Positions 27,494-28,118 of a stretch of 64,000 bases of DNA are shown in pieces. Position numbers and translations under genes: made by a program. Under the pieces are notes generated by a model. It was not told where the DNA came from and searched no databases. It was given only the letters and a program-made list of their open reading frames with translations. Location of the stretch: the IMG/VR virus record IMGVR_UViG_2684623127_000006; one strand, 5' to 3'. The stretch comes from a virus (Duplodnaviria; Heunggongvirae; Uroviricota; Caudoviricetes). Position 1 is the first letter of the stretch. Each line of letters opens with the position of its first letter.

Positions 27494-27680
27494 TGTCTCA
27501 CCCTTTACTGTGATAACTGTTACGCACAAAAACAACAGGCATCCCGGAGGATGCCTGTATCATGACTGAATAAAACTTCTGAATATCTTCACATTTTCAC
27601 AAACTGACTGTGGTGCTAATAATTTCTCTGCGTTAATGTTTTTTTGCCCGAGCACCAGAAACAAAAATAACTCCTTAACG

Positions 27681-28118
27681 TTAATCTTTGTCTGTCCCCG
27701 CAACTCTGCGGGATTTTTTTATTCTTTTTACCTCTGCCGCCCGATAACCACGACCGCCCGCCACAAAATTCACCGCATCCAGAAAACGGGCATACACCCG
27801 GCGGCGGACCACCGTGGCACCCACCAGGCTCTGCAAATCCTCCGCCATCCCGGTGACAAGACCGAACAGATTGGACACCGTCAGCGACGGGCGGGCACTG
27901 CTGCCCTTTCCGTTCATCTCAAAGCCACTGCCCTCAATCGGGTACGCCTGATATTGCCGCCCCTGCCAGGTCACCGGCTCCCTTTTTTCATTCAGCTCAT
28001 TGCAGAAAAAATACCGCTCACCGCCCTGCACCGTCAGGTCGATTTCCCAGAGCATCACCCGCGGTGACTGCTCTGACTTAACCGACTCGTTCAGGCTTTC
28101 TTCATGAATATTCTGCAT
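27681..28118 (-). pseudogene. minor tail protein L, truncated/chimeric (K and I genes missing downstream)
   Basis: First ~117 aa match lambda L (…VTWQGRQYQAYPIEGSGFEMNGKG…ARFLDAVNFV) then unrelated tail and stop. Confidence 0.7.

Follow-up and report, generated by a model that had tools for sequence, protein, structure and literature searches.

A putative internal L-K-I deletion in an Sp12-position O157:H7 prophage, next to a native I-J spacer that holds a pasB homolog

The 64-kb window, by which we mean the whole stretch of DNA analyzed (64,000 nucleotides), is colinear over 53 kb with Escherichia coli O157:H7 EC4115 (NC_011353.1, about 2.096-2.160 Mb) at 99.87% identity, and Sakai Sp11/Sp12 matches it at 98.4-99.9% identity outside a tract that resembles Sakai Sp9. 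As judged from sequence, the two tandem lambdoid prophages in the window are the counterparts of Sakai Sp11 and Sp12. The lesion described here, in which a shortened L (L′) is followed by J, lies in the Sp12-position prophage, which adjoins ynfA and has its late genes on the minus strand in the order Q, lysis genes, terminase, head genes, tail shaft, M, L′, J, lom, stf, tfa, nleG genes, IS elements. Near-identity and common gene order assign it to the defective resident O157:H7 prophages. It shows further decay, as the exonuclease gene contains an IS element, the repressor is disrupted and the integrase truncated (cf. PMC2669165), and Sakai Sp12 itself shows no excision, replication or packaging (PMC2669165). 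Sakai Sp12 (NC_002695.2, 2204089-2255027) is the positional equivalent, as it has the same Sp11 neighbor, IS66 inside an IS256 remnant, nleG7 and ynfA side. It differs from the window prophage in having intact L-K-I (ECs_2238-ECs_2236), in its I-J spacer, which is another allele and longer, and in its J, which is split in three ORFs. The features of the lesion and its surroundings are as follows.

28118-28459, minus strand: intact tail gene M, 113 aa (Pfam Phage_min_tail, 2-108 of 108; tblastn, 97% to intact M; annotated in EC4115 as phage tail protein).
27756-28118, minus strand: 5′ remnant of L, codons 1-121 of the 232 in intact L (tblastn, residues 1-121; Pfam Phage_tail_L, 3-93 of 206).
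27681-27755, minus strand: 24 out-of-frame codons (GRGYRAAEVKRIKKSRRVAGTDKD) and a stop, forming the end of the L′ ORF (translation; frame relative to the I stop of the intact 2013C-4225 and HCP5S3_I4 prophages).
27728-27755, minus strand: 3′ remnant of I, its last 8 codons and stop TAA at 27730-27728 (alignment to intact I of the same two prophages, ...GGCGGAAA/GGTCGTGGTTATCGGGCGGCAGGGGTAA).
27596-27720, plus strand: predicted pasB sRNA gene homolog, antisense to the tail operon (promoter/terminator scan; published PasB probe and coordinates; alignment).
27525-27558, minus strand: second terminator-like hairpin, ACAGGCATCC-TCCG-GGATGCCTGT then TGTTTTTGTG (terminator scan).
27494-27727, no strand: I-J spacer, native and non-coding, 234 nt (99% identity to that of intact prophages).
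24017-27493, minus strand: intact tail tip/host-specificity gene J, 1158 codons, ATG at 27493 (translation with only a terminal stop; tblastn, residues 1-1155).
24750-27818, no strand: tract identical to Sakai Sp9 that spans the junction (sliding identity and mismatch lists against Sp9, locus L007, and Sp12, locus L008).

Several further observations were made on the window as a whole. An IS629/IS1203 copy lies at 53330-54640, in the early region, and its EC4115 counterpart maps about 7.6 kb further along. At 28055 the window has a single T where EC4115 (both the Sp12-site and the Stx2c-site copies), Sakai Sp9 and Sakai Sp12 have C; this T may be the lone mismatch against the best 30 genome matches. 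Downstream of Q there are tRNA genes, and both prophages carry paired known prophage RNAs at Rfam gathering scores, namely STnc100, sok antitoxin and DicF (110-282 and 48028-48200, minus strand; 5598-5772 and 52139-52313, minus strand; 12994-13045 and 60472-60523, plus strand).

The minus-strand ORF at 27681-28118 encodes 145 aa, of which residues 1-121 are L and the last 24 are not, as revealed by tblastn and Pfam; the original prediction, made by reading the DNA, had likewise described an L homolog that is cut and then runs into unrelated residues and a stop. Pfam Phage_tail_L matches an intact relative over positions 3-206 and L′ over 3-93, with positions 94-206 gone, and lambda gpL (PDB 8IYK) aligns with intact relatives across all 232 aa. 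The NCBI annotation pipeline gives the L remnant, at the same exact coordinates, as a pseudogene "missing C-terminus". Searches by tblastn with intact K (Prok-JAB and NLPC_P60 domains) and intact I (Lambda_tail_I) found neither gene in the whole 64-kb window, in agreement with the predicted absence of K and I between L and J. The start of J had also been placed correctly at 27493, where an ATG opens the full-length frame. The window keeps J in frame at 24266, where two additional nt (CT) in EC4115 frameshift the gene; the Sakai Sp12 J is also broken near this position, between ECs_2233 and ECs_2234.

Intact relatives define what is missing. In lambda, in the Stx2c phage 2851 and in the prophages of E. 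coli 2013C-4225 and HCP5S3_I4 the genes run M-L-K-I-J, and the order, M, L codons 1-121, spacer and J are as in the window. Phage 2851 is 99.2% identical to the window from the tape-measure gene to L codon 121; unlike the window, it has an antirepressor gene cassette between L and K. Compared with these intact modules, the window is without L codons 122-232, K and all of I but its last 8 codons and stop. Alignment against intact relatives, which had been proposed as the way to find the breakpoint, located the junction at 27756/27755, where L codon 121 is joined to the last 28 nt of I. Similarity to phage 2851 and to the 2013C-4225 and HCP5S3_I4 prophages on the L side stops at 27756, and similarity to the I tail and spacer starts at 27755-27764. 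Specifically, intact L reads ...TTTGTGGCGGGC AATCCGG..., intact I reads ...GGTGGCGGAAA GGTCGTGGTTATCGGGCGGCAGGGGTAA, and the window reads ...TTTGTGGCGGGC/GGTCGTGGTTATCGGGCGGCAGAGGTAA. Relative to the closest intact allele (HCP5S3_I4), ∼1,635 bp are absent, comprising half of L, all of K, and I save the last 28 nt. Past the join, reading in the L frame enters the I tail in the wrong register, bypasses the I stop and ends at 27681-27683, which accounts for the 24 unrelated residues; this out-of-frame stretch runs through the I tail and the pasB terminator.

The deletion ends have essentially no common homology at the join (GTGGCGGGC/GGTCGTGG), which points to illegitimate recombination as the event. 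A microhomology-mediated deletion at GTGGCGG, a 7-nt sequence present in both L and I, was considered and rejected, as it predicts GTGGCGG/AAAGGTCG and the observed join is GTGGCGGGC/GGTCG. Neither an assembly artefact nor chance similarity accounts for the junction, since the same junction recurs in 213-242 complete genomes and the alignments on which it rests are long, with E-values of 0, and the junction is exact in hundreds of genomes.

The DNA between L′ and J had been described as about 270 bp of unrelated sequence. This description was not upheld, as the 262 nt from the end of L homology to J are 99% identical to the I 3′ end and I-J spacer of the 2013C-4225 and HCP5S3_I4 prophages (loci L003 and L004), in which a spacer of 236 bp separates M-L-K-I from J. 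On the L side, similarity of intact Stx phages to the window extends only up to 27756, and a sensitive search with 27494-27760 alone retrieved the same Stx phages, about 80% identical, at the end of gene I. A spacer precedes J in all 80 IMG/VR relatives with intact I, where it measures 235-345 nt, or ∼852 nt in ten of them. Thus, the non-coding stretch is a standard feature of this phage group. The ∼852-nt spacers (L012, L064, L073, L076 and L089 are among the loci named) carry an antisense ORF that by eye resembles a Cu,Zn superoxide dismutase (SodC) and replaces most of pasB, which suggests that the I-J spacer is a slot for antisense extra genes. The second terminator-like hairpin and its U-run (27525-27558) immediately precede the J ribosome-binding site on the strand of the tail genes, and the hairpin is kept in most spacer alleles with paired stem changes (ATCC/GGAT vs ACCC/GGGT). 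The Sakai Sp12-type spacer allele has a different hairpin at this site (CCCGGTATC...GATACCGGGG TTT).

A hairpin followed by seven Ts had been singled out in this stretch as a terminator-like element. It is indeed present, at 27697-27720, but it lies on the plus strand, antisense to the tail genes, and is, by its sequence and position, the putative terminator of a pasB variant. The 6-bp GC-rich hairpin (27697-27712) is followed by T7 at 27714-27720 on the plus strand only; on the tail-gene strand the order is A7 and then the hairpin. A promoter-like site lies ∼75 nt upstream of the terminator on the plus strand, with a -35 box TTCACA (27596-27601), 16 nt, and a -10 box AATAAT (27618-27623), which agree with 10 of 12 consensus positions and are consensus matches only. 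The pattern of promoter and terminator is kept in 58 of 82 spacers (81 loci and the window), many alleles having a perfect TATAAT.

PasB is an Hfq-dependent sRNA of EPEC E2348/69 that pairs with target mRNAs, as shown by northern blot and RIL-seq (PMC8550237). Its northern probe (AATCCCGCAGTGATCGCGGAGCT) and gene coordinates (1466343-1466261, minus strand) are given in Table S6 of Pearl Mizrahi et al. 2021 (PMC8550237). In E2348/69, I ends at 1466255 and J starts at 1466496, which puts PasB between I and J, antisense. The probe is the tail-strand sequence of the window's hairpin, and the RNA body at 27645-27720 (plus strand) agrees with the 83-nt PasB in 64 of 70 ungapped columns and differs by three indels (6, 4 and 9 nt), the last of them inside the probe region, i.e., in the terminator loop. 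The two genes share their location in the I-J spacer, antisense and ending 6 nt after the I stop codon, as well as the -35/-10 boxes and a CCCGCA/TGCGGG terminator with a U-run. The window variant differs in several ways: 6 nt are inserted close to the 5′ end; 4 nt are missing directly before the terminator, within the seed region proposed in the 2026 preprint of Zhu, Shabalina and Storz; a 9-nt deletion cuts the terminator loop to a tetraloop; and the -10 box is AATAAT vs TATAAT in E2348/69. Location and orientation, homology, and a predicted sigma-70 promoter-like site and intrinsic terminator of its own thus all identify the element as a pasB homolog, and its predicted promoter, body and terminator stay intact right beside the deletion endpoint.

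The PasB identity came via the literature alone, Rfam being without a model: Rfam gave no family for the spacer when the whole window was scanned at gathering thresholds and 27350-27900 at E<=10, the best match being Hrs1 at 22 bits vs a threshold of 56. The anti-sRNAs AgvB/AsxR and the EcOnc sRNAs (Tree et al. 2014) were rejected as candidates, as they sit downstream of the late promoter PR′ and not between I and J. The supplementary tables of Tree et al. 2014 have no entry for ECs1805, ECs1806, ECs2235 or ECs2236.

We searched for the junction in other genomes. A 111-nt junction query matched 242 of 5,426 complete E. coli genomes and a 1001-nt query covering the full deletion allele matched 213; the named strains among the matches listed for either are O157:H7. 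The exact junction 31-mer occurs in nine IMG/VR contigs, all of them prophage fragments from isolate genomes. No phage record had the junction (50,697 phage records searched, 0 of 151 matching records). In Sakai the deletion allele lies in Sp9, whereas Sp12 has intact L, K and I. Specifically, Sp9 (ECs_1804-ECs_1806; NC_002695.2, 1793806-1798248) has the same junction, 145-aa L′ (ECs_1805), spacer and J 5′ region as the window. It differs in being another chromosomal prophage (nleA, nleH, nleF) and in its L remnant and M, which are ∼6% divergent at 27819-28187.

Comparison along the prophage revealed a mosaic. The window is 100% identical to Sakai Sp12 at 21000-24250 and 28250-34000, and 100% Sp9-like at 27006-27818 and over most of 24750-26500; 17 mismatches to Sp9 fall at 26636-27005, where the window matches Sp12. 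The L remnant at 27909-28055 is of a third type, near phage 2851, and both boundaries of the Sp9-like tract fall within homologous L and J sequence. An Sp9-identical tract flanked by Sp12-identical DNA indicates that homologous exchange between prophages placed the allele here. Because Sakai Sp9 has the identical junction, this exchange would have moved an already deleted allele and would not have created the L truncation. The proposal that the prophage is a recombinant of two phages therefore holds for the tract, which is Sp9-identical in an Sp12-type backbone, and fails for the truncation. A large inversion between Sp9 and Sp12 was rejected as the route, given that the distal arm (nleG7, IS elements, dinI, Sp11) is still of Sp12 type and only an internal tract was exchanged. 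The EC4115 prophage at the Sakai Sp9 position (locus L009, 1680001-1730000; nleA, nleH1-2, nleF) has a lambda-type head/tail module in which L is full-length, K contains an internal stop and J is shorter, and is quite unlike Sakai Sp9. Position-based names thus do not designate equivalent prophages across O157 lineages.

A second form of the junction was found in the Stx2c-like prophage of 35 complete genomes, including EC4115, where L is broken by an 82-nt patch with the identical L121/I-tail junction. The order in this allele is L(1-121), junction, 82 nt, L from codon 139-140 to 232, Arc/Ant cassette, K, I, J (L100, EC4115 2669088-2681298, at 5666-6392; L094 at 1255-1978). The 82 nt consist of I tail and pasB terminator, are identical to the window and replace 54 nt of L; the downstream K, I and J are intact, and at the right-hand join of the patch only the dinucleotide AG is common. 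From window 27674 to about 29470, no difference separates the two copies in EC4115. The IMG/VR contig L094, which has the junction together with downstream K and I, is not an assembly chimera, as the same form is present in 35 complete genomes. Within O157:H7, one junction is therefore present in at least three prophage contexts, namely Sakai Sp9, the Sp12 position here and the Stx2c-like patch.

These data lead us to conclude that the Sp12-position prophage very probably carries an internal deletion of ∼1,635 bp with an illegitimate join, next to a native spacer with pasB, and that the allele was brought in by homologous exchange. Illegitimate recombination would have joined L codon 121 to a point 28 nt before the I end. 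This L-I join would have arisen once. Exchange between homologous, nearly identical prophages of the same host would have brought it to the Sp12 position, crossovers within L and J carrying the deletion allele into the Sp12-type backbone. A two-step origin, in which the 82-nt patch first took the place of L codons 122-139 and homologous recombination with the native I tail and spacer then deleted the 3′ part of L, K and I, is a real but unlikely competitor. The patch allele exists in 35 complete genomes, EC4115 among them, and a direct repeat of 82 nt identical to the window would give exactly the observed deletion. However, the spacer downstream of the patch is of the phage-2851 type, with about 25 differences over window 27663-27764; the patch shares few bases with it in the short aligned stretch, which argues that in the genomes seen the patch was not copied from the spacer of its own prophage. 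The deletion allele is also about 6-7x more widespread (213-242 vs 35 genomes) and present in Sakai Sp9. The reverse order fits equally well and is favored by the distribution: the patch may have come from the deletion allele via break repair that copied the junction and was ended by 2-nt "AG" microhomology or end joining.

We regard as improbable, more so than the two-step route, that the junction is itself an illegitimate recombination of two phages, one contributing the tail shaft and the other the J arm. Sequence type does shift near the junction, the L remnant being Sp12/2851-like and the spacer and J 5′ end Sp9-like, and phage 2851, 99.2% identical left of the junction, is 84% identical on its right side. 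The type switch, however, lies at 27818/27819, 63 nt inside L in homologous sequence and not at the junction, and both sides belong to one standard L-K-I-J module in correct order and orientation. Moreover, in Sakai Sp9 this junction is combined with another type of L remnant, which suggests that the flanks were reshuffled by homologous exchange after the event. That short L followed by J is a functional alternative tail tip needing no K or I is effectively refuted. J is an intact ORF in the window and L′ is an annotated CDS in Sakai (ECs_1805), but relatives with this arrangement, which the original prediction had named as the evidence against a defect, number zero among the 50,697 phage records. 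Furthermore, the 80 relatives with intact I all have the I-J spacer, annotated intact prophages have complete L-K-I-J, the end of L′ is an out-of-frame read-through of I, and the Fe-S domain of the hub and the plug gpI are missing. An internal deletion moved by exchange thus remains the preferred explanation.

In general lambda genetics, gpK is taken as an assembly factor. Lambda gpL is the trimeric hub protein, whose C-terminal domain binds a [4Fe-4S] cluster via Cys173, 182, 205 and 212, and gpI is a structural protein that plugs the lumen of the tip (PMC10721106). Mass spectrometry of virions did not detect gpK, which in the authors' speculation is non-structural (PMC10721106). Compared with a functional lambda-type tail-tip module, the window prophage has intact M and J, but its L similarity ends at residue 121 of 232, short of the Fe-S domain; there is no K between L and I, and of an I upstream of J the last 28 nt remain. 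With the Fe-S domain of hub L, K and plug I all lost, the prophage should be unable to make a tail from its own genes. The predicted tail defect is thus well supported by inference from a gene content seen in no sequenced phage.

The tail defect could be complemented in trans by the L, K and I of other prophages resident in the host. Complementation in trans was documented for head defects by Asadulghani et al. (PMC2669165). In Table 1 of that study, Sp9 and Sp12 both have their minor tail entered as conserved (PMC2669165), and the published defect list therefore does not explicitly name the L-K-I deletion. The Sp9 minor tail received this score although ECs_1805 is a truncated L and K and I are absent from Sp9. 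Sakai Sp9 DNA was found in DNase-resistant particles (PMC2669165), consistent with complementation in trans.

The locus represents ordinary prophage decay that is already known, as the truncated L is a RefSeq pseudogene and the parts that make up the region, including the sRNA, are published; in a well-studied defective O157:H7 lambdoid prophage the findings have little importance beyond bookkeeping. Our analysis adds the exact position of the breakpoint, correctly identifies the spacer and hairpin, and gives evidence for one defective allele in different prophages of different O157 lineages. Useful for annotation are the corrections that the DNA before J is the native I-J spacer and not foreign, and that the terminator-like hairpin is part of the predicted antisense sRNA gene pasB, left intact by the deletion. 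It is pure conjecture, and we think very improbable, that the spread of the allele is non-neutral, either through selection for tail-less prophages that keep the pasB/J/lom/nleG arm or because the 145-aa L′ hinders tail assembly in co-resident or incoming lambdoid phages. The findings caution against naming O157 prophages by position alone. Present in several contexts, the deletion allele would be a pseudogene allele that spreads from prophage to prophage through gene conversion, such that homologous exchange among near-identical resident prophages would move defects as well as genes.
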